From a virus (Duplodnaviria > Heunggongvirae > Uroviricota > Caudoviricetes), in IMG/VR virus record IMGVR_UViG_2654587996_000001, positions 1 to 36,538 of that record: 36,538 nt of DNA; one strand, written 5' to 3'. The notes below the pieces were generated by a model, which saw nothing but the letters and a program-made list of their open reading frames with translations, made no database searches and was not told where the DNA came from. How positions within the stretch are numbered: the stretch's first letter is position 1; every line of letters starts with the position of its first letter. Both the position numbers and the translations under genes were made by a program. Below are positions 1-36,538 of this stretch, piece by piece.

Positions 1-735
1 TCAACTCTCTTTCAAACCGGTTTTAACTGTCTGTGGTTTTGGGTAAGGCTGGACTTTGAATAGCTTTGTGTTGAGGCGTTTTCTGGCTCTCTTGTTCAGA
101 AACCGGATGTAACGAAACTGGCGGAATTTATGAACACTGGCTCTGTCGATATTAGCCCTCAGATGTTCACCTCGCTGTCCTCCTCGTTTGATGGTATTCC
201 TGCAAATCTCGTGATACCACTCGCCATCAAGTTCATAGAATGTTGATTCATGGCTGCCAACATAATCAAAATTGCTTGCCTGATACACGACACCAAGACA
301 GCCACAACGCTCATCTGCAAACGACTGAACCCACTGCACCTGCGGATAAAGTTGCCTGATGAGTTTGAGTGCGTAACTGATTGCCCTTGATTCGGAGTTT
401 CTCGGCATACAGTCATGCATCCATAGCCGGTTAAGCTCCATGTATTCACGGTTCTGCGTACCCGTTACGATGCGCGCTCCGCTGTTTGGATTAAGGGCAT
501 AACCCCATTGCATTACGCCAACCAGCTCCCGTTCTGAAAATATCCCCAGATGAAGGTAGGAGTTATTTACGAAACGGTGGCTGTAATGTTTATTGACGAT
601 GACCAGTCGGGCCAGCCAACAACTTATTGTCTCAACACGCAATTCACGGGAGCCATAACCAACGATATTGTCGTTATAGCGAATAAGTTCAGGCGTGCTG
701 ATGATACGGGATGTAACTTGCTTTTTGTTCCCCAC
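1..735 (-). CDS. mom: Mom-like DNA modification protein; proposed GTG start at 735 (244 aa); the frame stays open upstream to 1086
   Basis: Lies immediately downstream of and overlapping a Com-like zinc finger gene, as in Mu. GTG at 735-733 is preceded by AAGGAAA about 9 nt upstream. No ATG exists in this frame between 895 and 513. Stop TGA at 1-3. Assignment is by position, not by recognised Mom sequence. Confidence 0.5.
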
Positions 736-1152: not shown

Positions 1153-1455
1153 ATGAACAATCATGTAACGACGATAAATCAAAACACAATTGAAAACGCG
1201 GAAATTTATAATGATTATTTTTCCGATTATTCAGATGTCTGCAAATACAGTTCGAGTGCGGGAAAGTTCATATGCTTCAATTTTTTTATTAAATCTTATG
1301 TCTTTCCTCCTAAGGAAGAGGATGGATGTACTCCACCTCCTGAAATCAGGTTGCACCGTGTTGCCTCTGTCTCAATGATGGAGCAACAGGCTGATGAGTT
1401 ATATAGCATTCTGGGAGCGCTTCTGCACAAGGATGAGGCTAAGGTGGGTCAATGA
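1153..1455 (+). CDS. Hypothetical protein (100 aa), AT-rich
   Basis: ATG at 1153 preceded by GAGAGG at 5-nt spacing; low GC compared with the phage backbone; no recognisable motif. Confidence 0.4.
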   Translation: MNNHVTTINQNTIENAEIYNDYFSDYSDVCKYSSSAGKFICFNFFIKSYVFPPKEEDGCTPPPEIRLHRVASVSMMEQQADELYSILGALLHKDEAKVGQ

Positions 1456-1582
1456 TGCCCTGTTATGTTTCAGTTATACTCGGGGATTAAGCTGGATTGC
1501 CTGCTGTTATATTCCCGGAATACTCAATGCTATTCAGCGCTTTACATATCAGAAAAATAGCAAGGATGTTTTCATTAGAATT

Positions 1583-1608
1583 AAACCGGCAGGAGAAACT
1601 GCCGGTTT
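1583..1608. terminator. Intrinsic terminator-like hairpin between convergent small genes
   Basis: Perfect 10-bp stem AAACCGGCAG / CTGCCGGTTT with 6-nt loop; T-rich flank; begins 7 nt after the stop of the minus-strand ORF 1615-1869. Confidence 0.55.
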
Positions 1609-1614
1609 GTATTG

Positions 1615-1869
1615 TTACATCATAGTACTGTCAGTTCCGGACTGAGCCGGTTCTGGTTGTTCTGGCTGTGCGTCGGTTTTCGGCTCATTATCAGCATCAC
1701 TGGCCGCAGCAGCTGGCCCAAGAAGTTTTGCCAGCACCTCATCAACGTAAGTGTCGATTTGTGCCTCAAAATCCTTGCGGACCTGCGCTTTCAGTAATTT
1801 ATTTACTTCACCTGAATACAGCGCCTGTTTGACCAGGTCTTCAGTGACAGTGCCTTTAATCTCTGGCAT
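1615..1869 (-). CDS. Hypothetical acidic protein (84 aa)
   Basis: Strong ribosome-binding site AAGGAGG 6 nt upstream of the ATG; AT-rich; acidic Pro/Glu-rich C-terminus. Confidence 0.55.
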   Translation of the reverse strand: MPEIKGTVTEDLVKQALYSGEVNKLLKAQVRKDFEAQIDTYVDEVLAKLLGPAAAASDADNEPKTDAQPEQPEPAQSGTDSTMM

Positions 1870-1904
1870 GTATATCCTCCTTATGCGGGAATACAGCCCT
1901 GCAA

Positions 1905-2087
1905 TCAGGGCTGGGTCGGGTCTTTTGGGAGCGGGGTTGCCGTTGTTGTTTTACTGAGTTTTTCCGCTGCTGCGTCATCAATTTTACGGCGGACATAATT
2001 TCGGATAGCTTTGTAGCCACCACTCACCAGATATAACGCGCAGACCACCGAGCAGAAATATAATAAAATAAGCTGTATAAATGTCAT
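1905..2087 (-). CDS. Small membrane protein (60 aa), one N-terminal transmembrane helix then a basic tail
   Basis: Hydrophobic N-terminus IQLILLYFCSVVCALYLV; GGAG 7 nt upstream of the ATG; 35-nt spacing to the next ORF suggests co-transcription. Confidence 0.5.
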   Translation of the reverse strand: MTFIQLILLYFCSVVCALYLVSGGYKAIRNYVRRKIDDAAAEKLSKTTTATPLPKDPTQP

Positions 2088-2223
2088 TATTCATCTCCAT
2101 TATTAATATGGTGTTGACATAGTTAATACCTGTTGGTTAAAAAGGCGTCCTGCATTTTTTGCTTTGGACATAACGACTTTTGCCGCCGGTTTCCTTGTTT
2201 TCCCTTTCCAGGCGGCATTTTTT

Positions 2224-4302
2224 TTATCCTGCTGACGGGGTATTCACTTCCACCACAATGCTGTCAATCAGCACCGGATATGTCGCAGCGCTGGTGATAT
2301 CAGTCACCCGTAATTTGTCTGCCGTAAACGTGCCAACCGGAGACTGAGACAGCATGAATGGTGTCCCGTCCTTACCATCAATGACCGGCGTCACCTCAAT
2401 ACTGTTGTTACCGGCAAAACGGAAGCCCAGCGTATGCCATTCGTTATTAAATGCACCGAATGACCCCAGTTTCGTGTTTTGCGCCGTATTGCCCTTGTGG
2501 TACATCACGTTAAGGTCTGTGGCATCGCTCTGAACGTAAAACGATGCCAGCAGGTTATGACCGGCATTACCTTCCAGAGTAACCCCTTGCGGCAGGGCAG
2601 AAACCGGCCAGTACAGCGCCATCGCGTACTGATTAGCCGTAAGCGTACCATCAACCTTAAACCGGCAACTGACAAGGCCACCTTTACCCAGCAGGTCCGC
2701 ACCATTACCGGCATCATGCTCAAGGTACCAGGAGGATTTGCCTGTTTCCTTGGTCAGTTTCATGGCCTTACCACTACCTGCTCCGGCATCATCCACGATT
2801 TCAGCCTTGCCACCTCCCGCGCTCCAGCCCTGTGGTGACAGCTGACCTTCTGATTCAGATGTCCGGTAAGCAAACAGCGTGCTCATCGTCGTGGTGTCAG
2901 CCGGTGGAGTGGACGGTGTATCCGGCGATGGTGTTGATGGGGAGTCAGGTGATGGCTTCTCATCCGGTGGTGTCACGGTCTGCCCGCCCATCAGTTCAGC
3001 CGTGCGCCCTGCATGGAGCAGAATAGCGGAGGCCAGACGGTCTGAAATAATGCCCCTGCGTGCCCATGAGCTGAAATGGCTGTCACGCTGTGTCGAGACA
3101 AAACTGCCCTGAGTACGGGATGCTGCACCATAATACCCGACAGCCACAATATCCGGGTCTTCCGCCGGAGCATTTGTTGGCGTGTTTGCGCCGTTTTCAT
3201 CTGTCAGGAACGGTACAAAGAAAATATTCTGTGCTTCCTTGCCTTTGTAGCCACCGTATACTGTCTCATATTTATCGGTGCCAGCGTTTTTCCAGTAATA
3301 CGTGGTATCACCGCAAATCCACGGCACCGTGGTGGCATTTCCGCTCACACACTGTGCAGCAAGTGAGGACAGGTCAGTCCTGAACTGCTGAACCATGGCC
3401 GTGAATAAACCGTTATGCTGCTGACTGCCTGAAGCAAGGTCTGCCTCGCCCTGCATCCATACCACCGCCAGCAGCCTGTTTTTCGGGTTCTTCGCCAGCG
3501 CCGCTTTTGTCCGGCTGACCATGTCCTGATACAGGGGTTTACCGGCACCCCAGCGTGCAGCGTCAGCGGATGCGCCACTGGCCTCACTGAATGTACCGTC
3601 GGCACCGGTGGTGAATGCAGAACCACCACGACAGCAGGGCACCAGAAGTATCCCTGCATTCTGCGGGATATACGACAGCAGCTTTTTGGCAATATGCAGC
3701 CCCTGACTGACACAGCCATACTGCCCCTTATTCAGGTCCGCTTTCGGATGATTAACACCGCTCATATCCTGTACATCATGCAGACAATGGTCAGCCGGAA
3801 TCACATCATTGTATGCACAGGCGTCTCCACCCGGCGTCACTGTACTGCGGCGTGCCAGCTGTTTAATGCGCGGGTCCGGGCGGTCATAAGAGTCCGGTAA
3901 CGGAAGCCCCTCACCGTAGGCCATGCCGTTGGACTGTCCGGCAAGCACAACCACGTAGTAATACTCCGGCTCTCTGTTGCCGCCACTCACACTGCCGGAA
4001 GACCCGGCGTTATCCGGTGCATTCCAGTCCGATGGGGTGAGCGTTCCGGCCACATCCGACGTAATGGGAATGACGCCGGTCACGCCAGAGCTGGTAATTT
4101 CTGCACTGGGGGTACCGGACACAGGCATTACCCATAATGGCTCTTTCGTGCTGAAGCGGATCACACAATCTGCAAAGGTGATCCCGCCTTTATTACCCGA
4201 AGGCCGGAAAGGGCTTTCAATAAATGCCACAGTGCCACCGGCAACCTTGACTGAAAACTCTCCGGGCATGGCGGAGAGCATTTTCCACTGGGAGTCTGAC
4301 AT
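2224..4302 (-). CDS. SGNH/SASA-family esterase domain protein with Pro/Ser/Thr linker and C-terminal beta-rich domain; candidate virion-associated receptor-modifying enzyme
   Basis: Motif VVVLAGQSNGMAYG (GQSN nucleophile block of sialate O-acetylesterase-like SGNH hydrolases); linker PPDEKPSPDSPSTPSPDTPSTPPADTTT; no N-terminal signal peptide; located just past the tail fiber genes. Confidence 0.7.
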   Translation of the reverse strand: MSDSQWKMLSAMPGEFSVKVAGGTVAFIESPFRPSGNKGGITFADCVIRFSTKEPLWVMPVSGTPSAEITSSGVTGVIPITSDVAGTLTPSDWNAPDNAGSSGSVSGGNREPEYYYVVVLAGQSNGMAYGEGLPLPDSYDRPDPRIKQLARRSTVTPGGDACAYNDVIPADHCLHDVQDMSGVNHPKADLNKGQYGCVSQGLHIAKKLLSYIPQNAGILLVPCCRGGSAFTTGADGTFSEASGASADAARWGAGKPLYQDMVSRTKAALAKNPKNRLLAVVWMQGEADLASGSQQHNGLFTAMVQQFRTDLSSLAAQCVSGNATTVPWICGDTTYYWKNAGTDKYETVYGGYKGKEAQNIFFVPFLTDENGANTPTNAPAEDPDIVAVGYYGAASRTQGSFVSTQRDSHFSSWARRGIISDRLASAILLHAGRTAELMGGQTVTPPDEKPSPDSPSTPSPDTPSTPPADTTTMSTLFAYRTSESEGQLSPQGWSAGGGKAEIVDDAGAGSGKAMKLTKETGKSSWYLEHDAGNGADLLGKGGLVSCRFKVDGTLTANQYAMALYWPVSALPQGVTLEGNAGHNLLASFYVQSDATDLNVMYHKGNTAQNTKLGSFGAFNNEWHTLGFRFAGNNSIEVTPVIDGKDGTPFMLSQSPVGTFTADKLRVTDITSAATYPVLIDSIVVEVNTPSAG

Positions 4303-27000: not shown

Positions 27001-27463
27001 CCGCCGAACGGCGGGCCTCAAGACCGGGGAGTTTTACCCCCTTTGAATAAATCCAGCGGATATACTGCTTACAGGACGCGGGCATCTGCCCGGCATTGAT
27101 AAGGCGCAGGAGCGTGGAGTTGCGAAAGTTCGTTTCACCGGCCTGGAAAATCCAGGAGGCCAGCGCCACCGTCTGACCACGGGTAAGCGGCACCTGAACA
27201 TGACGATCGATAGCCGCAAAGGCCCATTTCATGTCCTTTTCCAGCAGCGCCAGACATTCTTCATCAGTTTTTGTCATCCCCGGTTTCACATCCGGGCCGG
27301 TATGGCCGTAACAGATGGTGAGGGTGCCGGTGGGATCAGTGTACGTGGTGTTTTCTTTCCCTTCCCAGTAGCCGGTGTAGTGCGTGGCAATGGTGAACGT
27401 CCCGGCTCCGGCCAGAACAAGGGCAATCAGCTTTTTACGCAGGGGCGCGGGGAGTTTTGGCAT
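26963..27463 (-). CDS. SAR endolysin (T4-lysozyme-like glycoside hydrolase)
   Basis: Catalytic-region pattern YWEGKENTTYTDPTGTLTICYGHTG (Glu/Asp/Thr); N-terminal Gly/Ala-rich signal-anchor LIALVLAGAGTFTIA. Confidence 0.8.
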   Translation of the reverse strand: MPKLPAPLRKKLIALVLAGAGTFTIATHYTGYWEGKENTTYTDPTGTLTICYGHTGPDVKPGMTKTDEECLALLEKDMKWAFAAIDRHVQVPLTRGQTVALASWIFQAGETNFRNSTLLRLINAGQMPASCKQYIRWIYSKGVKLPGLEARRSADEWLCRYDLPKV

Positions 27464-27534
27464 TGTTACGCTGTCTCATGGTGTTCTCTGAGTCAGCGTA
27501 ACCGTGGAAAAAAGGGGGCAGGATTTGCGGAATA

Positions 27535-27957
27535 TCAGAAAAGCCGGGGCTGCGTGCGTTCCTGATGCAGGCGACGCTGGTTGCGGATAACGGAGTAAAT
27601 CTGCGTCTCTGACATCTGGTAGTGGCGGCGCAGGGTTTCAATTTTTTCGCCCTGGCTCCAGCGGGAAAAAATTTCATTATTGCGCAGTTCGGTGAAAAGG
27701 GATTCACCGACCGGGAGATAATAACCACGCCCGCCCATGTACCCGGCCTGTGCAGCCGCAACTTTACGGGCAAGCATTCCCGCCTGAGCAGGTTCAATCC
27801 CCTGACGGTGCAGTTCAGCACTGATCACATCAACCAGGTCCCGCAGCGTGCCGGGCCAGTTTTTTTTCAGCTCATCATCAGGAATGTCATCCAGACGGTC
27901 AATCAGCGCGTGCAGCTGTTCGCTGTCACCAAACATGCTCATCTGTGTTTCAGCCAT
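27535..27957 (-). CDS. Mor/C-family transcription activator
   Basis: 140 aa, positioned immediately upstream of the lysis gene as Mu C is; conserved C-terminal region IYSVIRNQRR. Confidence 0.65.
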   Translation of the reverse strand: MAETQMSMFGDSEQLHALIDRLDDIPDDELKKNWPGTLRDLVDVISAELHRQGIEPAQAGMLARKVAAAQAGYMGGRGYYLPVGESLFTELRNNEIFSRWSQGEKIETLRRHYQMSETQIYSVIRNQRRLHQERTQPRLF

Positions 27958-27999
27958 ACCCGCCTCCGGTCATCATTACACAAGGCAAGTTTAAAATAA

Positions 28000-28023
28000 A
28001 AATCCCGCGCTGTGGCGGGATTT
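28000..28023 (-). terminator. Rho-independent terminator at the end of the early operon
   Basis: Perfect 9-bp stem AAATCCCGC / GCGGGATTT with 6-nt loop, followed on the minus-strand RNA by UUAUUUUAAA; starts 4 nt after the gemA-like stop. Confidence 0.65.
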
Positions 28024-28027
28024 GGGG

Positions 28028-28537
28028 TTAACGGGGGAATGATTTTTCATACAGCCTGCAAACGCGCTCATAACTCATCACTGTATGTGCTGGCATCCCC
28101 AGTACAGACAGCATTTTGCGGCGGTGCCAGCGTTTGAGACGCTCCAGCACATCAGAGGCCATCGCGGGGTGTTGCTCCAGCCACTGCCAGTTAGCCACAC
28201 CTTCGCCGCCGTTCTGCGCGGCCGTCTGCGATTTCACCCAGTGGTTAAGGGCTGTTTCCCCGCCATCAGAGATAAAGCCCTGCCGGTGCATCACCTTCCA
28301 GATGGCGCGAATTTTGGCGGTCACCGTACCCGGTTTTAAGGCCCGGTTAACCGGTTTCTGACGCACTTTAAAACCGCGTTTTTTGAAAACATCCAGCACG
28401 CGGGATAACTCATCCGGTGACATATCCCGGCAACTGGTTTTGCCGGTGGCTTCCAGTAGTACGGATGTGTAGATCTCATCATCCAGGGCAAGCTCGCGCT
28501 TTGCCACATGAATAGCGGATATCAGTTTCCCTCTCAT
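28028..28537 (-). CDS. GemA-like regulatory protein (Mu gp16 family)
   Basis: 169 aa; N-terminal region LISAIHVAKRELALDDEIYTSVLLEATGKTSCRDMSPDELSRVLDVFKKRGF resembles the GemA family pattern; last gene before the early terminator. Confidence 0.55.
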   Translation of the reverse strand: MRGKLISAIHVAKRELALDDEIYTSVLLEATGKTSCRDMSPDELSRVLDVFKKRGFKVRQKPVNRALKPGTVTAKIRAIWKVMHRQGFISDGGETALNHWVKSQTAAQNGGEGVANWQWLEQHPAMASDVLERLKRWHRRKMLSVLGMPAHTVMSYERVCRLYEKSFPR

Positions 28538-28830
28538 GCTGTATCAACACTCCTGCTGATATGATAGATATTATTTTCCCGATCGAGCTGAACCCGATAC
28601 TCCGGAGGAATCACAAAAATATTAAAACCATCATCAGTTTTTATTCTTGAGTAGTATTCCCCCTTATGATATCTGGCAAGTGCATTAATCAGAGAAGTCG
28701 TCGCCAGCCCAATCAGGTATTTTTTATGAAAAATACTGATAACTTTCCGGCACAGCCATCGTGTAATGACGAATGCACCGAAAAACGATGTGATATATAA
28801 ACACCAGAACAACTGCGAACTACTGTCCAT
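28534..28830 (-). CDS. Small membrane protein (98 aa), AT-rich
   Basis: N-terminal transmembrane helix LFWCLYITSFFGAFVITRWL; AAGGAG upstream; 4-nt overlap with gemA-like gene. Confidence 0.45.
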   Translation of the reverse strand: MDSSSQLFWCLYITSFFGAFVITRWLCRKVISIFHKKYLIGLATTSLINALARYHKGEYYSRIKTDDGFNIFVIPPEYRVQLDRENNIYHISRSVDTA

Positions 28831-28845
28831 TATCTTTCTCCTTAT

Positions 28846-28980
28846 TCAGTCTTCTGCGACATTCGGCACAGTCATCAGGGCTTTCAAATGTATCCGGCTC
28901 GCGATTATGAGCCAGATATAACCACCGCCTACATATACTGATATTATCGCCTGTTTTAAAAAATGATGCTTCTTAGCCAT
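28846..28980 (-). CDS. Small hydrophobic peptide (44 aa), below the ORF-track size cutoff
   Basis: Hand translation MAKKHHFLKQAIISVYVGGGYIWLIIASRIHLKALMTVPNVAED; stop TGA 13 nt before the next ATG; weak ribosome-binding site. Confidence 0.3.
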   Translation of the reverse strand: MAKKHHFLKQAIISVYVGGGYIWLIIASRIHLKALMTVPNVAED

Positions 28981-29008
28981 CAGAGGGCGCGCCCATCCAG
29001 CGGGTAGA

Positions 29009-29383
29009 CTATTCATTTACTTTATCCTCCATACTGGACAGAATCATCTGTATTAATGTCGGGCGTGGAGATATACGCATTTCATTAAGCGTCTGAAGGG
29101 CAGCAACAGCTGCCTGTTTATCGGTGCCTTTGGCAATTTCCGCAAGAGAATGCACAATCCATAACGGACTTAACGCCACGACTGAATCCAGAATCATGTC
29201 ATCCATAATAATTTCTGGCACATCCAGTTTGTCATACTCCTTATCCATAAAAGAAACGATTTTTTCCACATCTTCCGGTTTCATGCCTCCGGCGATGAGA
29301 ATTTTTCTATATTCATAAGACGATCTTAATTCAATACTCATATTCATCTCCTGTAACGCTGACAAGGACGTAATTTTTCTCAT
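29009..29383 (-). CDS. Hypothetical protein (about 110-124 aa), AT-rich
   Basis: AGGAG directly upstream of tandem ATG codons near 29338-29346; no recognisable motif. Confidence 0.45.
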   Translation of the reverse strand: MRKITSLSALQEMNMSIELRSSYEYRKILIAGGMKPEDVEKIVSFMDKEYDKLDVPEIIMDDMILDSVVALSPLWIVHSLAEIAKGTDKQAAVAALQTLNEMRISPRPTLIQMILSSMEDKVNE

Positions 29384-29565
29384 TTATGTTTTCCAGTAAT
29401 ACGGATATATATGTCGATAAGAAGATTCATAATAAACAGGAAGAGCGACATCCTGATAAAGAACCATATATCTGGCATCATGGACAGATTTCCTGTAACC
29501 GAAAATATAAAACCAACCACCCCAACTGGAACGATAATTGCGAAAAGTATAAGTCGCTTTATCAT
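29380..29565 (-). CDS. Small membrane protein with two transmembrane segments (61 aa), AT-rich
   Basis: Hydrophobic segments LILFAIIVPVGVVGFIFSV and WFFIRMSLFLFIMNLLIDI; 4-nt overlaps with both neighbours. Confidence 0.45.
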   Translation of the reverse strand: MIKRLILFAIIVPVGVVGFIFSVTGNLSMMPDIWFFIRMSLFLFIMNLLIDIYIRITGKHK

Positions 29566-30113
29566 GGCGTTAACTCCCGTAATACAGCGTCCTCGGCGGT
29601 CCGGCGACGGTAATAAACTGCGTGAGCAGAATGTTCAGATATTCCAAACTTTTCGCCAATTTCCCGGAATGACAGACGGCGTGGGTAATCGGAATCACGC
29701 AGCGCACGTATAAGACGTACATCATCATCAGATATGCGCGTGCCGGGGCGTAACTCTCCGCACTTTGTTAATCCGGCACCAATCATTCCTGCCCGACATC
29801 TGACAGAATCTTTATTACGTCCGAGGTATTCTCCCATTTGCTGGCAGGTCATTGTTCTGGCATTTTTTCGAATAAACTTATCTTCATCAGGTGTAAATCT
29901 GGGGTGTTTATATTTCAGTAACTCCGGGTATGAACTGCGCAATACACCAGTCCGGTTATATACAGCCCAGACAGTTCTTTTTATTCTGGCAGCAATATCC
30001 TTAACCGGGGTGGATGAATAAAGCGCAATCAGCAGCGCATCTTCTTCAGGTATCCACGGACGGACATGAGCGGGGGCGCGACCTTTTCGTCCCATGGGTT
30101 GTAATTTCATCAT
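29562..30113 (-). CDS. Putative DNA-binding protein with three tandem helix-turn-helix-like segments
   Basis: Repeated pattern of an acidic patch followed by a basic helix, for example WIPEEDALLIALY..IAARIKRTVWAVYNR and ISDDDVRLIRAL..SFREIGEKFGISEHSAHAVYYRRR. Confidence 0.4.
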   Translation of the reverse strand: MMKLQPMGRKGRAPAHVRPWIPEEDALLIALYSSTPVKDIAARIKRTVWAVYNRTGVLRSSYPELLKYKHPRFTPDEDKFIRKNARTMTCQQMGEYLGRNKDSVRCRAGMIGAGLTKCGELRPGTRISDDDVRLIRALRDSDYPRRLSFREIGEKFGISEHSAHAVYYRRRTAEDAVLRELTP

Positions 30114-30116
30114 GCA

Positions 30117-30632
30117 TCACCCCCTGACTCGCTTTTCAGCAGCATAAAACTCATCAGACAGAATTTCGGTCATTTTCCGTTTTGCGGAATCATCTTCGCA
30201 CTGAAGATAAATCACATTGTCAACGCAGAACCAGTTCACGGGACCATACAATATTGCTGAGAAGTCAATGCCCAGCCAGAACAACAGGGCATCGGTTCTG
30301 GCATACGTGACGGGCGAATATTCACGCCACAGAATGTTCAGTTCATCAGAGGCAACACGCAGGGTTTTAGGGATACGTGATGTGCGCGGCGTGCAGCTCC
30401 AGCCATTCGACGCAGTCGGTTTTCTCCATAAGTCGCGATGAAAAGGATATTTGTCATCCATAAAGCGCAGCCCCTTAAAACAAAATCCACTGATACCGGA
30501 TACAAATACCGACCGGCACGCAACATTCAGCACGGCCTCAAGGCGTTTTGCCTCATCCTTAACTTTCTGGCAGTCCTGCTGGTATTTTTGCCACGCAGCC
30601 AGCGCGGAAGGGTTTGATGTTTTAAAGAACAT
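30117..30632 (-). CDS. Hypothetical early-region protein (171 aa)
   Basis: Tightly packed in the early operon; no recognisable motif. Confidence 0.4.
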   Translation of the reverse strand: MFFKTSNPSALAAWQKYQQDCQKVKDEAKRLEAVLNVACRSVFVSGISGFCFKGLRFMDDKYPFHRDLWRKPTASNGWSCTPRTSRIPKTLRVASDELNILWREYSPVTYARTDALLFWLGIDFSAILYGPVNWFCVDNVIYLQCEDDSAKRKMTEILSDEFYAAEKRVRG

Positions 30633-31165
30633 TACGCCACCTCCGCAGATATCCCGGCAGGCGCTGCTGTCCGGTCAACAATCAGGTAGCGCAGAACACG
30701 CGCGGTGATATTCCAGCCGCTTAAACCGCAGATAATGACACCCAGGCGAATGTCGATATACGCCATCACAAACTGGGGTACGCCTTCTTTCATGGCCTGC
30801 TCATCAACTTCAGCCACCACATAAACGGTTTCACAGGTCAGAACGCCCTGAGCAAATTCCCACGCCATCGACGGAATATCATGCCCCTCAATCCACGGCA
30901 GGGATTTTCTGAAGCTGCACCACTGAACATCATCAGCCGCACATTCCTGGCTGCATTTGCGACGAACCGGCTGCACCGGGCGGGGACGCGGAATATCATA
31001 AAAACCGTTACGGTCCGTCAGCACGCCTGCATCGACTGCATCACGCAGAAAATAAACCATGGAGGATGGCGGCATATTCATTTTTTCTGCCAGAGAACGG
31101 CTGGTCAGACGGCCAGAAAAACGCAGCCAGTTTTTAACCCCTTCAAGCACTTTTGCATCAATCAT
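30632..31165 (-). CDS. Hypothetical early-region protein (177 aa), possible N-terminal winged-helix
   Basis: Operon packing; N-terminal helical segment; Cys-rich middle region. Confidence 0.4.
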   Translation of the reverse strand: MIDAKVLEGVKNWLRFSGRLTSRSLAEKMNMPPSSMVYFLRDAVDAGVLTDRNGFYDIPRPRPVQPVRRKCSQECAADDVQWCSFRKSLPWIEGHDIPSMAWEFAQGVLTCETVYVVAEVDEQAMKEGVPQFVMAYIDIRLGVIICGLSGWNITARVLRYLIVDRTAAPAGISAEVA

Positions 31166-31168
31166 GAA

Positions 31169-31711
31169 TTATTCCTCCGTAAGCGCCACATATTCAGAAC
31201 GTTTAATTTTCTGGCATTCTTCAGGAATACAGCCGTTTATTTCCCTGCCATAAGCGCCTACTTTAAACACCACACACATCGCATTACGGGAGAGCGACGG
31301 GGTCCACCAGGAGTCTGTGTTAAACATGGAGGGGATTCTCATTACTCCCAGCTTTTCACAGAGCCAGACAAGGAAATCAGGACGCTTTCTTAACTCGCGT
31401 TCAGCGGCCTCAATCATTGCGGCAATAGCCGGTCCTTCAGGGCATGACTTATCAGGTCTGGCTATAAAGCACTGTCCGCCACCGATAAAAGCCACATCAT
31501 CGCGCTTACGCCAGCCCGCAGGCAGAGCACCAGAAAAATAAAACTCACTGATTACGTCCATGGCGAACGGCTTTAAGCGCAATCCGGCAGCGCCTGTATT
31601 TTTCAGTAACGCCCGAAGAATACTGTTGCGTAGCGGTAAAACAGTCTGTTGATATTTGGTGAAATATTTATTTGTCTGCACACGGTCTAATTTGAAATAA
31701 AAATATGCCAT
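31169..31711 (-). CDS. Hypothetical early-region protein (180 aa)
   Basis: Operon packing downstream of gam; no recognisable motif. Confidence 0.4.
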   Translation of the reverse strand: MAYFYFKLDRVQTNKYFTKYQQTVLPLRNSILRALLKNTGAAGLRLKPFAMDVISEFYFSGALPAGWRKRDDVAFIGGGQCFIARPDKSCPEGPAIAAMIEAAERELRKRPDFLVWLCEKLGVMRIPSMFNTDSWWTPSLSRNAMCVVFKVGAYGREINGCIPEECQKIKRSEYVALTEE

Positions 31712-31808
31712 ATTTCCGATTCCTTATTTTCAGCTTTCAGGCGCAAGCAGTCCCCTGACGCGAGCGCCATACTTAAAACGATGTGATATTTAAAGATTTA
31801 ATGCGGTG

Positions 31809-32339
31809 TTATTTATTCAGTCCGGCGTCCTGTTCAAAAGGCTCGACATAAAAACTTTCAGCGCCTTTATTCACCTTAATACCGGCAATGCCTTTCACTG
31901 CATCCGGCTCCGCCAGGACGGCTTCCTTGTTCACTTCCTCTTTCGTGCGGATGAATCGCTCAAGCCCCATACGGCGCAGCATTTCAATCACACCTTCCAC
32001 ATCACGGCTGACGCTGCATGATGGCGTTCCCAGCCGCCATGACACCGTTCCGGTGGTCAGATTGACTGTTTTGGTTTTGCCGCCGTTCGTCAGCTCATCA
32101 CGGTTGGTTTTGCACCAGTCCTGAATCCCTTTAAAAAGCACTTTGATTTGCTTTTTAAGATTTTCAATCTGCGGCGTATAACGGGCGGTGATTTCAGCCA
32201 CCTCGTCATTCATTGCCGTTTCCAGGCGCAGCGCCTCTCGCTGAATATCGCCCAGGGTGCGGATATCACGGCTGACTTCTTCGCGGGTCTGCGGTGCGGC
32301 CTCGGCTGCGGCCTTTAATTTTGTAACGCGTTTTGCCAT
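31809..32339 (-). CDS. gam: Gam-like host-nuclease inhibitor (Ku-like DNA end-binding protein)
   Basis: 176 aa; motifs such as TREEVSRDIRTLGDIQREALRLETAMNDEVAEI and NRDELTNGGKTKTVNLTTGTVSWR match the recalled Mu Gam pattern. Confidence 0.75.
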   Translation of the reverse strand: MAKRVTKLKAAAEAAPQTREEVSRDIRTLGDIQREALRLETAMNDEVAEITARYTPQIENLKKQIKVLFKGIQDWCKTNRDELTNGGKTKTVNLTTGTVSWRLGTPSCSVSRDVEGVIEMLRRMGLERFIRTKEEVNKEAVLAEPDAVKGIAGIKVNKGAESFYVEPFEQDAGLNK

Positions 32340-32350
32340 TTTGTTTTTCC

Positions 32351-32743
32351 TTATTGCAATGTATCTGGTGCGTTCTGCAAAGAACGGCGCTCAATGCTGC
32401 TTTTCACCCCCATAGCCTGCATGGAACCCTGAAGTTCATCTGTCAGAAACTGAATAATTGTGGGGCTGTGATATTTAAGAATTTGAGCATAAACATCACA
32501 GGGTCCTGTCGGTCTGTTCTCCGTATCACGTTCGATTTTTACAGTGGCAGTAACCCCCTCCGTGATTTCCTGACTATCATTACCGGCTGGCTTTACTTCA
32601 TGCATTACGTGGTTAAATTCAAAAATAACGCGTACTTTGCTCATCCTGTTGTCCTCATTTCGTCTTAATAACTCATCCGGCGTCTGACCTGATGACAGAG
32701 CCGAACCATGAAGTAACTTCATACTTCCCAGTAGACCGTACAT
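32351..32743 (-). CDS. Hypothetical early protein; real start probably internal
   Basis: ORF overlaps the upstream gene by 25 nt; internal Met codons are plausible starts. Confidence 0.35.
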   Translation of the reverse strand: MYGLLGSMKLLHGSALSSGQTPDELLRRNEDNRMSKVRVIFEFNHVMHEVKPAGNDSQEITEGVTATVKIERDTENRPTGPCDVYAQILKYHSPTIIQFLTDELQGSMQAMGVKSSIERRSLQNAPDTLQ

Positions 32744-32985
32744 CCGCTTATGCGGGTGGCTTTTACACGGCGGCGCAGGCCATTGGTCTGAACAGTGATT
32801 TCAATTTCACCGGTTCCCTTAACTTCGTTTACCGGCGGCGTGGTTTTCAGGGCATAACGTTGTGGGTAGCGTTTGCTGCGCTCCAGCACTGCACCGGCAA
32901 GTTCAGTCAGACGGCGTGCGCTGTTCAGGGAGTCGAATAAATTCATTTTGTTACCGCAGGATTGCATATTCATATAACACCTCAT
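32719..32985 (-). CDS. Hypothetical early protein (88 aa or shorter)
   Basis: Operon packing between B and gam. Confidence 0.4.
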   Translation of the reverse strand: MRCYMNMQSCGNKMNLFDSLNSARRLTELAGAVLERSKRYPQRYALKTTPPVNEVKGTGEIEITVQTNGLRRRVKATRISGCTVYWEV

Positions 32986-33213
32986 TTAGCTGACTTGTTT
33001 TGCACCAACAGAACGGCATATTCCACTGTAAACCTCTGTCGCACCTTCGCGATCAAGTCCGGCAGATATCACCATTCGCGTGCGGTCATTAAATTCAAAA
33101 AGTAAATCGCCACATTCTTTATTTTCGGCCAGTGAAATCACTTTCACGTTATCGAAATTCACCAGGTAAAAGCGTCCGTAGATATCAGGAATATTAAATG
33201 CAGCCATAATCAC
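32986..33213 (-). CDS. Small early protein (75 aa) in the position Mu uses for kil
   Basis: Immediately downstream of B with a 4-nt overlap; position only. Confidence 0.35.
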   Translation of the reverse strand: MIMAAFNIPDIYGRFYLVNFDNVKVISLAENKECGDLLFEFNDRTRMVISAGLDREGATEVYSGICRSVGAKQVS

Positions 33214-34142
33214 ACCTGTGAGAGTAATTCAGGGTTGGTATAAACCTCTTTAAAGGCCGCATTAATATGTTTTTCTGTCAGCGCGGCACCTTCACCGCTG
33301 GCGGTGATCCACGCCTGGTTAAGCGTATGTGTCAGAACGCGTAAGGCTCCCGGCTTTTCAGCGATAGCCTGCATGACAGCCAGCTCGGCCTCACCACTAA
33401 TCCCCCATGCCCTGGCAATAGCCAGCACATCCGCCTTTTTGGCCTTGCGAAGTTGTTTTGTACGGGCAAGACGGCTGAACAGGCGCGATAAATCATCAAC
33501 GGTGCGGCGTCCACCCTTAAACAGTCCGCGCGGGTTACCAATAAGCACCATCCCGATCCCCGTGGCGTCCTGGATTGCACGCAGTTGTTCCAGACCGTCA
33601 ATACCAAGATGATCCGCCTCATCAACAATCACCAGTCCACGAGTTCCCATCAGGCGACGGCGGATGGCGCGGGATAACGCCCCCTTGTTCGCGCGGGTGT
33701 AATCAATCCCCAGTTCCTCTGCCAGCTCCAGCATACACTCCGTGACGCTGGAATGCGCGGGCGACAGGGTGATCATCCAGGTGTTCGGTTGCTCCTGACA
33801 GTAATTGCGGGCCGTGGCCGTTTTACCCACACCCGGTACGCCCACAATGACGTTAATACAGCCCATCAGGCGAACCGCCTGAAACAACGCGCGCAGCTCC
33901 TGGACTGTCTGCGTTTCCACAAACTGCGGCGGTTCCGGCAGTGCGCTTTGTTTATTCCAGTTCTCATACCAGGAACGCAGGGAAGCAGCCACAGCAGCGT
34001 TATCGCCTTTATATTTTCCCTTACGGAAAGCCGATAATGTGCCGTCGGAAATTCCCGCCTCTCTGGCGATGGCATACTGCGTCAGCACGCCGCCATCAAT
34101 AAGTTCATCAATGGTCTTGATTACATCGTTTATATCGGTCAT
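33210..34142 (-). CDS. B: Transposition ATPase MuB-like (AAA+ target DNA activator)
   Basis: Walker A GVPGVGKT and Walker B LVIVDEADHL; 310 aa; immediately downstream of the transposase. Confidence 0.85.
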   Translation of the reverse strand: MTDINDVIKTIDELIDGGVLTQYAIAREAGISDGTLSAFRKGKYKGDNAAVAASLRSWYENWNKQSALPEPPQFVETQTVQELRALFQAVRLMGCINVIVGVPGVGKTATARNYCQEQPNTWMITLSPAHSSVTECMLELAEELGIDYTRANKGALSRAIRRRLMGTRGLVIVDEADHLGIDGLEQLRAIQDATGIGMVLIGNPRGLFKGGRRTVDDLSRLFSRLARTKQLRKAKKADVLAIARAWGISGEAELAVMQAIAEKPGALRVLTHTLNQAWITASGEGAALTEKHINAAFKEVYTNPELLSQV

Positions 34143-34217: not shown

Positions 34218-36305
34218 TCAGGCCAGCGGATCATTTTCTTTTAATTTCGCTTCCAGCAGCTGCAATCCCCGCTGGAAGTTACGCTCGTATTCGTCATCAG
34301 GTTCATCATCAACGGCAGGTCTCTGAACGGCCACCGTATTACCTACCGGGCGGTATATGTTTTCCAGCCATGGCTCCTGTGGCTTGTGCTCCAGCACGTT
34401 GACAACCTCATCCTCGGCATCACGGATTTTTTCCTCTGCGCGTTTACGCATACCTTTAAGGCGCTGCTGCTGTTTGTAGTATTCCGCGCTGACCGGGAAG
34501 GCTTCGCGTTTATTGCCGTCCCATACCGCCTCGCAAATCACACTGCCATCCAGGCGACGCACGGTAATTCGCTCAGCATCATGAATGTCATAGCTGATAA
34601 GCACCTTACGACCATGCTCGTCACGCAGCTCGGGCGCGTAGTAAATATTATTCAGCCAGCGTATTTCACAGCGTCTTACAGGGCGCTCCACCATCGGCCG
34701 GAACATATCCCGCAGCTCAACATCGGACAGCCATTCAATTTCCGTGTCCTCTTCCGCCAGGCGTTTTTTTCTGAACTCCGCCGGGCTGTAATGTTTACCG
34801 TTCGGCTTCATGGGTAATTCATCGTGCGGCCGGTTGTTGTACCACTCAACGCCGTCACGAATGGCATCAATCAGTTCAGACCAGGACGGTAAATCACGCA
34901 TCGCTGACTGCTGCCGGGCGTTCAGCCGCTTGCCCTGTTGCAGGGCACTGAATGCCGAGCGTAAATCGCGGTTGGTTTTACGTAACGTCTCGCGATCTGC
35001 ACCTTTCCCGAAATAGGTGCGGTATTTACGGGCTATGCGCATCGGTAATGTGCGGTTAAGCCGTTCGATAATGCCCCGTCCCTGCGGGTTACCGGCAATC
35101 CCGGTCGGGTGATTAATCCCCAGTCGCGGCAGTATCCCCACAATCTCCTTATCCAGGACGTCGGCGGTTTCCCCCGAGCCATTATCCGAGTAATACAGAA
35201 ACGGTTTGCCGTGATGTCGAATACCGTGCTGTATGGCACCGGCTACGGCGAAAACATTTTCAGCCAGGTCAAGGCTCCAGCCCACCACAAAGCGCGTGCC
35301 GCCGTCGATAACAAAGGTCACTTCCGGTGCAAATGGCCGCCCGTGAACCGGGTGTGCGCATTTCAGCTTCATGCCGTGACCGTCACCAATCCAGACATAA
35401 TTCACCGGCATTTTTGACCAGTCGCGGCGAGTGAACCCCTCAAGCTGGCGGTATTCACTGCCGGTAACCCGGCCTTTTTGTTTCACCACTTCCGGCAGTT
35501 TCTTCATTGCGCGGCGAATGGTGTCATAAGAGGGCATGATATCGAGCATATAAGGCTCATCAGCGTGCCGGTGCTGCCATTCAGCGACAAAATCCTCGTA
35601 AGCCTCGGTCATTGGTCGGCCGTTTGACTGGCGATACTGCGCCAGAAACTCGGGCAGCCAGTTAATATCTTCGGCTTTTATTTCCTGACGTTTACCCGGT
35701 GCCAGTAAAAGCAGGCGTTCAGCGGCGTTCTGCGCCTTGTTAAAGGCCGCAATCCAGCGTTTCAGCGTGATTTCACTCAACGCGCGGCTGTTTCCCTTTT
35801 TGGCGTTCGCCGTCTCAACCATTGCCACAATGCGCTCGTCCAGTTGTGATCGTGCCAGGCTGTTAACGAGGAACCGGATAGCCTTAGCGCAACTAAAGCC
35901 GGGTTGTTGCGCGATTTTCAGCGCCTCGCTGACGATCGCTATTCGTGCCTCTGCCACTTTACGTTGGTTTTCAGTCAGGGCATTGAGGCGTTCGACCATC
36001 AGTTGGGGTGATCCGCGATATGCCTCCACCGCATCAACCACGGCAGGTGAGCGTCTGGCCTTTGTCACCACCGGAGCCGGTGATTCATCGGCTTTTTGCG
36101 TCATCAGTTGCAGGGCGTAGCGTTCACGTAATGCCTGCTGCGTCACTTCAGGTAAACAGTCGATGCTGTATTCAAAACCTTTAGTGCCTTCCTGGCGGCG
36201 TCTGCTGGTTTCGCTGGTTGCATACTTCCTGATTGAATAGCGGACGCCTTGCTCCGTTCCCGGCATTCCCGGTAATCCAACCAGCTCTTTAACTGAAGCA
36301 AACAT
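34218..36305 (-). CDS. A: DDE transposase MuA-like
   Basis: 695 aa; catalytic-core region WIGDGHGMKL...SDNGSGE; position between ner and B. Confidence 0.85.
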   Translation of the reverse strand: MFASVKELVGLPGMPGTEQGVRYSIRKYATSETSRRRQEGTKGFEYSIDCLPEVTQQALRERYALQLMTQKADESPAPVVTKARRSPAVVDAVEAYRGSPQLMVERLNALTENQRKVAEARIAIVSEALKIAQQPGFSCAKAIRFLVNSLARSQLDERIVAMVETANAKKGNSRALSEITLKRWIAAFNKAQNAAERLLLLAPGKRQEIKAEDINWLPEFLAQYRQSNGRPMTEAYEDFVAEWQHRHADEPYMLDIMPSYDTIRRAMKKLPEVVKQKGRVTGSEYRQLEGFTRRDWSKMPVNYVWIGDGHGMKLKCAHPVHGRPFAPEVTFVIDGGTRFVVGWSLDLAENVFAVAGAIQHGIRHHGKPFLYYSDNGSGETADVLDKEIVGILPRLGINHPTGIAGNPQGRGIIERLNRTLPMRIARKYRTYFGKGADRETLRKTNRDLRSAFSALQQGKRLNARQQSAMRDLPSWSELIDAIRDGVEWYNNRPHDELPMKPNGKHYSPAEFRKKRLAEEDTEIEWLSDVELRDMFRPMVERPVRRCEIRWLNNIYYAPELRDEHGRKVLISYDIHDAERITVRRLDGSVICEAVWDGNKREAFPVSAEYYKQQQRLKGMRKRAEEKIRDAEDEVVNVLEHKPQEPWLENIYRPVGNTVAVQRPAVDDEPDDEYERNFQRGLQLLEAKLKENDPLA

Positions 36306-36307
36306 AA

Positions 36308-36538
36308 TTACGCGACCTTACGAATGTAGCGGCTGGGCCAAATCTCCTCGGGTGGCACACCCAGGCATTCCGCAATAATCCCCTCATACTTGGGAACATG
36401 ACGGTATACCGCGTTGTACAGGTTGTTCTGACCTACACCAGCTTTACGTGCCAGCGCCCTCATACTTCCTTCTCTGGCTCTGACTTCCCCCAAGATTCTT
36501 TGAGGATGCCAATCAGGCTTAACTTCATTTCTCGCCAT
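36308..36538 (-). CDS. ner: Ner-like DNA-binding regulator (76 aa), complete; its ATG is the last codon of the window
   Basis: Sequence ends ...AECLGVPPEEIWPSRYIRK, resembling the Ner/Nlp family C-terminus (IWPSRY); 2-nt gap to the transposase start. Confidence 0.75.
   Translation of the reverse strand: MARNEVKPDWHPQRILGEVRAREGSMRALARKAGVGQNNLYNAVYRHVPKYEGIIAECLGVPPEEIWPSRYIRKVA

Follow-up and report, generated by a model that had tools for sequence, protein, structure and literature searches.

What do the four genes that follow gam in this Mu-like phage encode, and what might they contribute to its growth? Mu is a textbook phage, and yet, to our knowledge, no function has been assigned in 40 years to the genes that lie between its gam and gemA. 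We analyzed this region in a window of 36,538 nucleotides, the whole stretch of DNA available from the virus record (IMG/VR IMGVR_UViG_2654587996_000001). An earlier note on this DNA had described four contiguous, tightly coupled genes of 171–183 amino acids (aa) between gam and an AT-rich island, had assigned them to the semi-essential early genes of a transposable phage, and had found no nameable motif in any of them apart from three helix-turn-helix (HTH)-like repeats in the last.

The four genes form a coupled block downstream of gam

The open reading frame (ORF) listing confirmed the number, size and location of the genes as described (Table 1). The upstream border of the block is Gam (Pfam Phage_Mu_Gam, 6e-42), and the downstream border is an AT-rich stretch; the genes of this stretch have a GC content of 35–47%, against 54.6% for the window. 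Genes 1 and 2 are separated by a spacer of 3 nt, as are genes 3 and 4, the stop codon of gene 2 and the start codon of gene 3 overlap by 1 nt (TAATG), and gene 4 runs into the next gene through an ATGA overlap. Shine-Dalgarno sequences of the GGAGG/GGGGG type precede the starts and are located within the preceding gene. Together, the short spacers, the overlap and these ribosome-binding sites bear out the tight coupling.

Table 1. Coordinates of the features in and around the four-gene block, in positions of the window
Feature	Position	Residues	Strand	Size	Description
Gam	31809–32339				Upstream border
Leader gam/gene 1	31712–31808		minus		GGCGC...GCGCC hairpin and AAGGA ribosome-binding site of gene 1
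Four consecutive ORFs	29562–31711		minus	180/177/171/183 aa	ORF listing
Gene 1	31169–31711		minus	180 aa	Probable divergent DUF5420-type, phrog_2260
Gene 2	30632–31165		minus	177 aa	Mu gp11 ortholog
Gene 2, N-terminal part	30986–31165	1–60			Basic, weakly winged-HTH-like
Gene 2, linker		61–89			Pro/Arg-rich
Gene 2, Gp11_C domain	30665–30898	90–167			Acidic
Gene 3	30117–30632		minus	171 aa	Mu gp12 ortholog, phrog_2314, PF26885
Gene 4	29562–30113		minus	183 aa	pI 10.0; T5 D5/Mu gp9 family, three HTH repeats
Gene 4, repeat R1	29934–30062	18–60	minus
Gene 4, repeat R2	29775–29903	71–113	minus
Gene 4, repeat R3	29604–29741	125–170	minus
AT-rich stretch	28534–29565				Downstream border

No convincing promoter or terminator was found inside the four-gene block. 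The leader element ahead of gene 1 is conserved in Mu, SfMu and IMG/VR relatives, though free of covariation, and is kept in loci that lack gene 1; a search against Rfam gave no match at or near the gathering score of any family. In comparisons with homologous loci, dN/dS was 0.18–0.29 for gene 1, 0.13–0.24 for genes 2 and 3 alike, and 0.09–0.26 for gene 4. With all values between 0.09 and 0.29, the four ORFs are therefore real coding genes under purifying selection. They are co-translated early genes of a Mu-like phage, which agrees with the region assigned to them in the earlier note.

Genes 2 and 3 are orthologs of Mu gp11 and gp12

The statement that no motif could be named did not survive similarity searches. 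Gene 2 matched Mu_11 over its full length in blastp (65% identity, E 2.5e-74), and Pfam domain Gp11_C (PF25754) was recovered at 4.8e-40 (136.2 bits, against a cut-off of 27). The isoelectric point of its three parts is 9.4, 9.2 and 4.4, from the N- to the C-terminus. The N-terminal domain may be a winged helix; the Pfam families HTH_24 and HTH_10 reached an E-value of only about 0.1, and the winged-helix call was never significant.

Gene 3 is 52% identical to Mu_12 (blastp, E 5e-63) and is labeled 'Mu-Gp12 family protein' by PGAP. Its assignment to PF26885 was made through its homologs, all of which carry this domain (46 of the 46 found). Gene 2 follows gam as its counterpart does in Mu, and Mu gp11 and gp12 (formerly E10-12 and E13) occur in the same order as genes 2 and 3, with the same one-base stop/start overlap. 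The two phages differ on either side of this pair: Mu has nothing between gam and gp11, where this phage carries gene 1, and in Mu the small proteins gp13 and gp14 come after gp12, where this phage carries the HTH gene.

Clear homology to characterized Mu early proteins of housekeeping function, which the earlier note had named as evidence against its view, did not emerge, since Mu gp9, gp11 and gp12 are all annotated as hypothetical. Our literature searches returned nothing on the function of Mu gp9, gp11, gp12 or DUF5420, on that of the semi-essential region, or on anti-defense in Mu-like phages; these genes also go unmentioned in a 2026 PNAS paper on MuC and the sliding clamp.

Gene 1 is a probable DUF5420-type protein in a variable slot

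Gene 1 matched phrog_2260 at 6e-73, and a direct Pfam search of the protein gave no match, even at an E-value of 1. It is 39% identical to SfMu gp11, which is annotated as 'DUF5420 family protein' in RefSeq. Within the profile family of gene 1, seven of the 16 aligned members match PF17457 (best 5.6e-23) while gene 1 itself does not. The profile search recovered 14 clusters among 1.84 billion representatives, nine of them near-full-length (181–210 aa). An AlphaFold2 model of the protein has an alpha/beta fold (pLDDT 86.6, pTM 0.78), and in BFVD it resembles uncharacterized phage proteins at a TM-score of about 0.7.

Judged by its sequence, gene 1 is probably distantly related to Pfam DUF5420, and it lies in a slot between gam and gp11 that is present, absent or replaced. 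It shares with SfMu gp11 (DUF5420, PF17457) its size (180–196 aa) and its position ahead of the Mu-type gp11 gene, but differs from DUF5420 in falling below every Pfam threshold. DUF5420 has no solved structure, and literature searches gave no paper on its function.

Gene 1 and gp12 are possibly remote paralogs. BLASTP and shallow profiles gave no signal between them. Deeper profiles aligned the gene 1 family to gp12 end-to-end over 157 columns, with an HHalign probability of just 12–20%; the profile score was 27.6, compared to 13.8 ± 2.5 for a block-shuffle null, and none of 200 shuffles scored as high. The HMM of the gene 1 family (DUF5420-type) gave weak scores against gp12 sequences.

Gene 4 encodes three HTH repeats

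The AlphaFold2 model of the gene 4 protein (mean pLDDT 77.8; block means of 80–94 in repeats 1 and 2 and of 81–88 in repeat 3) consists of three 3-helix bundles, with helices at residues 22–31, 37–43 and 48–58, at 75–84, 90–97 and 101–111, and at 129–140, 149–156 and 160–169. When sub-alignments of the repeats were compared with hhalign, R1 and R2 matched with a probability of 97.3% (E 2e-11), R2 and R3 with one of 88.8% (E 2.5e-6), and R1 and R3 at an E-value of 8e-4; the score of each pair exceeded those of all 100 column shuffles. Aligned pair by pair within the single sequence, the repeats showed no significant similarity (z 0.9, 0.0 and 1.7). With the profile and structure tests positive and the pairwise test null, the repeat is therefore real, but visible at the level of profiles and structure only. 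The model and the shuffle tests thus support the three HTH-like segments seen earlier in this gene. Every repeat is basic (pI 9.5–10), and the protein carries a conserved N-terminal PMGxxGxxPAHV and a conserved C-terminal RRTAxDAxLRELxP motif.

Foldseek searches of the PDB with the gene 4 model gave nothing significant (all E-values at least 0.09), with a CRISPR-repeat-binding protein (2lvs), c-Myb R2R3, the Tc3 bipartite domain and SNAPc as the top folds. For none of the four proteins did the PDB yield a credible relative, whether it was searched by sequence or by profile. Like c-Myb R2R3, the Tc3 bipartite domain and Sulfolobus Cbp1, gene 4 consists of tri-helical HTH units on short linkers, and helix 1 begins with W-x2-E-[ED]-D, as in tandem Myb/SANT and homeodomain-like repeats. 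The resemblance to Myb and homeodomain-like repeats is one of architecture; PGAP labels close relatives of gene 4 as 'SANT/Myb-like DNA-binding domain-containing protein', and the match to Pfam Myb_DNA-binding is below threshold (14 bits, against a cut-off of 24.4; E 0.057). The predicted binding of gene 4 to DNA rests on the three 3-helix bundles, the pI of the whole protein, and the tandem HTH binders among the nearest folds.

An assignment to AsnC/Lrp, the label under which several close homologs of gene 4 appear at NCBI, was rejected. The HTH_AsnC-type match scored 19.1 bits (cut-off 27) and covers repeat 3 only, and in the model the protein consists entirely of the three HTH units, with no RAM (ligand-binding) domain.

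Gene 4 is related to T5 D5 and Mu gp9

Gene 4 matched phrog_323 at 1.2e-51 (177 bits, residues 2–182), a family that also takes in T5 D5 (1.2e-71) and Mu gp9 (1.3e-28), and that carries the PHROG label 'transcriptional regulator, D5-like' in the category transcription regulation. In hhalign, the gene 4 alignment matched T5 D5 with a probability of 94.6% (E 7.2e-8, 151 columns), with residues 17–171 aligned to D5 71–232, spanning all three repeats. Mu gp9 aligns over its whole length to residues 66–168, where repeats 2 and 3 lie (z 10.2). A plain tblastn search with gene 4 did not recover T5 at an E-value of 1e-5. At the level of profiles, gene 4 belongs to the family of T5 D5 and Mu gp9; with the DUF5420 link of gene 1 and the Gp11_C and PF26885 domains of genes 2 and 3, all four are new members of families that are already catalogued and functionally uncharacterized.

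Like gene 4, T5 D5 (T5.118, 255 aa) is expressed early and has tandem HTH units, but it is about 70 residues longer at the N-terminus and just about 25% identical. The T5 record annotates it simply as a DNA-binding protein, and no target site is defined. By this record and by McCorquodale (1979), as cited in PMC12630848, D5 binds duplex DNA, is required for replication and late transcription, and is involved in the shut-off of early genes. Because T5 is virulent and relies on its own polymerase for replication, while transposition is the replication mode of this phage, transfer of the D5 role to this phage is weak. In D5, a characterized DNA-binding protein, gene 4 comes close to the kind of characterized homolog that was not found among the Mu early proteins.

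Mu gp9 (E8, 95 aa) and its SfMu ortholog gp09 share the PHROG of gene 4 and the semi-essential early region. Mu gp9 has two repeats and lies upstream of gam, whereas gene 4 has three and lies downstream of gp12. In a survey of 80 related loci anchored on gp11, a three-repeat gene was found downstream of gp12 in 36 and a two-repeat, gp9-type gene upstream of gam in 33; the two were never found together, which favors their equivalence. This mutual exclusion may reflect descent and not function, because it coincides with two phage clades.

Full-length homologs of gene 4 also occur in P2-like prophages, whose early operons carry them between int/C and the replication gene A. A scan of genome contigs with the HTH alignment gave no confirmed relative, most likely due to the narrow peptide patterns used and the sampling of one genome per species.

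Partial tblastn matches of residues 12–118 in mycobacteriophage HNH endonuclease and DNA methylase genes, together with weak scores of gene 4 relatives against HNH-endonuclease PHROGs and Pfam HNH_repeat, could suggest that gene 4 is what remains of the DNA-binding part of a homing endonuclease or methyltransferase, and that the four genes are functionless hitch-hiking cargo. However, homologs in Mu-like and P2-like phages keep the full length of 183 aa and have no nuclease domain attached, the genes are under purifying selection and translationally coupled in an operon, and the shared repeats are more simply explained as a common DNA-binding module. We consider this origin, already disfavored by these data, very improbable.

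Two positions of the block turn over rapidly

Across the 80 loci, gp11 is the gene that stays constant in this region; gp12 is missing from 21. The idea that gp11 always needs a DUF5420-type or gp12 partner was rejected, as 14 of these loci have gp11 with neither.

Among the 38 closest relatives, gp11 is 90–98% and gp12 87–98% identical. The gene 1 slot is filled by type A in 17 of these loci and by type B (roughly 23% identical) in 6, and is empty in 12. Two alleles of gene 4 exist, each in 17 loci, and every combination of slot state and allele was found. One locus carries two DUF5420-type genes in tandem. The DUF5420 slot and the HTH gene thus behave like fast-swapping cassettes.

The differences between the gene 4 alleles are concentrated in helix 3 of the repeats, where 17–19 of 32 residues differ, compared to 4–7 of the 55 residues that make up helices 1 and 2 (Fisher p 3e-5 to 7e-7). 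Between alleles, dN/dS is 0.5–0.9 in helix 3 and 0.06–0.08 in helices 1 and 2, at similar dS.

Such divergence of the recognition helices resembles a change of operator specificity, and would fit a gene 4 protein that acts not as a general D5-like binder but as a sequence-specific regulator with allele-specific operators, for example a repressor or activator of certain phage or host promoters, or a superinfection-exclusion factor. The PHROG category of the family agrees with this, and in the model three HTH units could read a composite site of roughly 30 bp. However, the neighborhood contains no repeated motif: a search for operator-like repeats between 27400 and 32400 gave just two-copy matches at chance level. 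Moreover, the two alleles combine freely with the phage genes on either side, which makes a cognate site in another part of the phage genome less likely, unless the cassette itself or the host provides it, and D5, the sole studied relative, is annotated as DNA-binding with no such site. A specific regulator seems unlikely to us.

Host takeover and anti-defense, named in the earlier note as common functions of this region, are possible roles. The same turnover could be the product of selection by host defenses, with genes 1 and 4 as counter-defense cassettes that neutralize or evade host immunity and do not serve the phage program, for instance in escape from sensors of DNA-binding surfaces. 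In line with this, T5 D5 is the reported trigger of a type IX retron that senses it via its DNA-binding surface (bioRxiv 10.64898/2026.07.11.737809). The three states of the slot, its free combination with the two alleles, the tandem DUF5420-type pair, the helix 3 changes and the movement of gene 4 homologs between Mu-like and P2-like early operons also fit such an arms race. On the other hand, the dN/dS of helix 3 does not reach 1, gp11 is constant, and gp12 remains well conserved in all 38 of the close relatives. NCBIfam gave no matches, and neither there nor in the PDB searches was any likeness to characterized anti-defense proteins found; PADLOC defense models gave no match at an E-value of 0.1 for the four genes or for three downstream ORFs. 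Variable early-region cassettes are, in addition, common among temperate phages and arise for various reasons. On balance, we regard an arms race as an improbable cause of the turnover. In its more specific form, in which the helices of the D5-like gene diversify under host sensors such as retron msDNA decoys and the swappable DUF5420-type protein, as a remote paralog of gp12, is a counter-defense or host-factor-binding protein beside the conserved gp11, it appears quite unlikely.

Proposed role of the block

Our preferred reading, which we hold about equally likely to be right or wrong, is that the four genes make up an accessory module of the early operon, the last of them encoding a multi-HTH binder of duplex DNA. 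The block would be part of the Mu-type early (Pe) operon and translated as one coupled unit after Gam; membership of the early operon is suggested by the common strand, the coupled junctions, the lack of a convincing internal promoter or terminator, and the homologs in P2-like early operons. The three HTH modules of gene 4 would be strung along the DNA helix in the manner of tandem Myb or homeodomain-type repeats. During early lytic growth the protein may modulate transcription and/or replication of phage or host DNA, a role proposed because T5 D5 has been described in replication, late transcription and early-gene shut-off. The two alleles, differing mainly in their recognition helices, would bind different DNA or meet a different sensor. 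In this accessory module, gp11 would be the conserved core, with a basic N-terminal domain, maybe a winged helix, and an acidic C-terminal domain, and the DUF5420-type protein and gp12 would be its optional neighbors.

The result refines the annotation and sets priorities, and leaves the current understanding unchanged: the block is mostly ordinary, with two fast-varying positions worth testing. The family link between gene 4, Mu gp9 and T5 D5 provides a concrete, testable activity, namely multi-HTH binding of duplex DNA. The region can now be sorted into a part that is constant (gp11), a part present in most relatives (gp12), and parts that are swapped as cassettes (the DUF5420 slot and the D5-like recognition helices), which points experimenters to the deletions and allele swaps that are likeliest to give a phenotype. 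If the arms-race reading were true, Mu gp9, gp11, gp12 and their relatives would represent a widespread, unrecognized layer of conflict in the early operons of transposable and P2-like phages.

Organization of the early region

The window carries a Mu-like transposable phage that is read on the minus strand, and its gene order follows the layout of the Mu semi-essential early region (see table). Of 5,426 complete E. coli genomes, 231 contain prophages that match the segment 28500-32400 at 90-95% identity, and Mu-like insertions within two Stx phages match it at 89-90%. The early region is mosaic relative to Mu, as the transposase is ~23% identical (tblastn; window 34218-36305 against 1328-3319 of the Mu locus L001) whereas B (49%), Gam (57%), gp11 (65%) and gp12 (52%) are much closer.

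Features of the early region in the window
Feature	Position	Strand	Description
Ner	36308-36538	minus	
Transposase A	34218-36305	minus	
B	33210-34142	minus	
Three small ORFs	between B and Gam	minus	
88-aa ORF	32719-32985	minus	kil-like
130-aa ORF	32351-32743		upstream of gam; phrog_2230
Gam	31809-32339	minus	
Leader	31712-31808	minus	non-coding, downstream of gam
Genes 1-4	between Gam and AT-rich stretch	minus	
Gene 1	31169-31711	minus	180 aa, DUF5420-type
Gene 2	30632-31165	minus	177 aa, Mu gp11 ortholog
Gene 3	30117-30632	minus	171 aa, Mu gp12 ortholog
Gene 4	29562-30113	minus	183 aa, three HTH repeats
AT-rich stretch	28534-29565	minus	four small ORFs
GemA	28028-28537	minus	
Terminator-like hairpin	28000-28023	minus	between gemA stop and mor start
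Mor	27535-27957	minus	
Lysozyme	after Mor in minus-strand gene order		

The 88-aa ORF shows weak similarity to Mu Kil (36% over 39 residues, E 1.7e-5), so the phage probably has a kil-like gene where one is expected, after B. The 130-aa ORF overlaps this kil-like ORF and matches its own family from residue 36 onward only, so that its true start is probably later than called. Many relatives (e.g. L006 3625-4258) have two tandem paralogs of this ORF, with identities of ~28-39% and 57-98%.

The AT-rich stretch (GC 35-47%, compared with 54.6% for the window) contains ORFs of 61 aa (very hydrophobic, GRAVY 1.30), 124 aa (phrog_1988), 56 aa and 98 aa (phrog_17269). Its gene content varies among close relatives, some of which have Mu gp13- or gp14-like genes instead. 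The hairpin after gemA is strong, with a 9-bp stem followed by a T run; in Mu, unlike in the window, gemA and mor overlap and no terminator-like site is annotated there.

A translationally coupled block of four genes

The ORF listing agrees exactly with the coordinates and sizes that the earlier note had proposed for the four ORFs. Genes 1 and 2 are separated by 3 nt, genes 2 and 3 overlap at TAATG, genes 3 and 4 are again 3 nt apart, and gene 4 overlaps the next gene by ATGA; every start has a purine-rich Shine-Dalgarno sequence ahead of it, within the upstream gene. Measured against 16-38 homologous loci, gene 1 has a dN/dS of 0.18-0.29, genes 2 and 3 both 0.13-0.24, and gene 4 0.09-0.26, with values of 0.06 for B and 0.05-0.12 for Gam at equal divergence. 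Based on the junctions, Shine-Dalgarno sequences and dN/dS, genes 1-4 are real, constrained and translationally coupled. A simple scan of the coding strand found no convincing promoter or terminator inside the block.

Genes 2 and 3 correspond to Mu gp11 and gp12

A BLASTP search of the Mu proteins (AF083977) identified genes 2 (65% identity, full length) and 3 (52%) as orthologs of gp11 and gp12, both annotated as hypothetical in the Mu record; the gene order and the one-base stop/start overlap are identical in Mu. Gene 2 contains Pfam Gp11_C (136 bits), and its domains have pI values of 9.4, 9.2 and 4.4. The basic N-terminal 60 residues gave sub-threshold matches to winged-helix families (Pfam, E ~0.1) and to MarR and AsnC chains (PDB, E ~1). 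The recent Pfam family PF26885 was found in 46/46 gene 3 homologs, which PGAP now names "Mu-Gp12 family protein".

In the IMG/VR survey (anchors: gene 4, 53 loci; gene 1, 48 loci; gp11, 80 loci), gp11 is the constant gene of the region. Half of the gp11-anchored loci (40/80) have a DUF5420-type gene, and wherever one occurs (48/48 loci) it sits immediately between gam and gp11; gp12 follows gp11 in 59/80. As 14/80 loci have neither, a dependence of gp11 on the DUF5420-type gene or gp12 is ruled out. The region has gp11 as its conserved core, with the DUF5420-type protein and gp12 as optional neighbours.

Gene 1 and the DUF5420 slot

Gene 1 has no counterpart in Mu; SfMu gp11 (RefSeq "DUF5420 family protein") is 39% identical, and a homolog also occurs in three Yersinia Mu-like phages. 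Searching 1.84 billion representative proteins with a profile yielded 14 clusters only, nine near-full-length (181-210 aa) and five fragments. Pfam DUF5420 is matched by 7 of 16 aligned family members, and not by gene 1 itself. AlphaFold2 gave a confident best model (pLDDT 86.6, pTM 0.78), with pLDDT as low as 34 among the five models because the alignment is shallow. Foldseek matches to same-size uncharacterised phage proteins among predicted viral structures (TM ~0.7, E 3e-9 to 4e-8) make the modeled fold look reproducible, though it is without annotation.

The gene 1 family and gp12 are possibly remote paralogs. A deeper gene 1 family profile aligns with that of gp12 end to end (157 columns, score 27.6; block-shuffle null 13.8 +/- 2.5, maximum 22.3 in 200 shuffles), and the two have motifs in common at the N-terminus (YFK/FFK) and C-terminus (EIKHSEF-A/EILSDEFYA); the HHalign probability is low (12-20%).

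In the 38 closest relatives, whose gp11 is 90-98% identical, the slot that gene 1 occupies between gam and gp11 is of type A in 17, of type B in 6 (~23% identical; for example a 196-aa ORF in L029), empty in 12 and unscorable in 3. In "empty" slots (L006 4897-4941, L024) the leader, a ribosome-binding site and a 14-codon ORF, MKYVYIVINNVVGK, remain; as the start of this ORF resembles DUF5420-type proteins (MKY.Y), its sequence suggests that a gene was deleted from the slot, rather than that the slot had always been empty. One locus (L086 4001-5127) has two tandem DUF5420-type genes before gp11, which share 37% and 29% identity with gene 1.

The leader (L001 6326-6423 and L003 3264-3354 in compared loci) is kept from the window phage to Mu and SfMu, where the flanking proteins are just 57-65% identical, and is retained with or without a DUF5420-type gene after it. 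The conservation includes its GGCGC...GCGCC hairpin, a putative structure, as no compensatory changes were seen.

Gene 4 is a D5-like protein with three HTH repeats

The three HTH-like repeats previously noticed in gene 4 were confirmed: AlphaFold2 models three 3-helix bundles with linkers of low confidence, and profile-profile comparison identifies the segments as homologous repeats. The protein has a pI of 10.0 and every repeat is basic. It matches phrog_323 ("transcriptional regulator, D5-like"; 1.2e-51), which also takes in bacteriophage T5 protein D5 (1.2e-71), Mu gp9 (1.3e-28) and a "DNA binding protein" of a P2-like Citrobacter phage (2.8e-33). The alignment with T5 D5 (probability 94.6%, 151 columns) spans all three repeats, and full-length Mu gp9 aligns to repeats 2 and 3 (z 10.2). 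Foldseek gave no significant match to solved structures; its non-significant list consists mostly of tandem HTH DNA binders (Cbp1, c-Myb R2R3, Tc3, SNAPc). Close homologs are called "AsnC family" or "SANT/Myb" by NCBI, names that are unsupported at Pfam thresholds.

In the gp11-anchored survey (n = 80), 36 loci have a three-repeat gene after gp12 and 33 have a two-repeat gp9-type gene upstream of gam, and no locus has both. This mutual exclusion is compatible with functional equivalence; it also coincides with two phage clades. More distant full-length homologs of gene 4 (35-42% identity) occur in P2-like prophages, where they lie in the early operon between int/C and replication gene A.

Gene 4 alleles diverge in helix 3

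Two gene 4 alleles, defined by identity to the window copy (>=95% vs 65-80%), occur in 17 loci each among the 38 closest relatives (unscorable in 4), and every combination of allele and gene 1 slot state was found. Between alleles, helices 1 and 2 of all repeats are 67-100% identical, and helix 3 of the three repeats 48%, 55% and 27%. When the window copy was compared with four allele-2 loci, helix 3 differed at 17-19 of 32 residues and helices 1 and 2 at 4-7 of 55 (Fisher p 3e-5 to 7e-7); dN/dS was 0.5-0.9 and 0.06-0.08, respectively, with similar dS. Since helix 3 is normally the DNA-reading helix of HTH proteins, the alleles most likely differ in their DNA target, or in whatever recognises this surface. 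No repeated operator-like motif was found nearby, in 27400-32400.

Discussion

The identities of genes 2-4 are firm, and gene 1 is a probable divergent protein of the DUF5420 type; as to mechanism, we infer by analogy with T5 D5 that gene 4 would most likely be a multi-HTH binder of duplex DNA, acting early in the lytic cycle on transcription or replication. The T5 record annotates D5 as a DNA-binding protein that is needed for DNA replication and late transcription and takes part in early shut-off, and a passage of PMC12630848 cites McCorquodale (1979) for its role. According to a 2026 preprint (bioRxiv 10.64898/2026.07.11.737809), D5 alone is mildly toxic, and a type IX retron senses it as a trigger via its binding of the msDNA.

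A putative anti-defence or arms-race role is plausible for the two variable positions, the gene 1 slot and gene 4; defence-system models (PADLOC) gave no matches to the four genes. Genes 1-4 are new members of catalogued, uncharacterised families, a finding that is modestly useful in guiding experiments and is no surprise.
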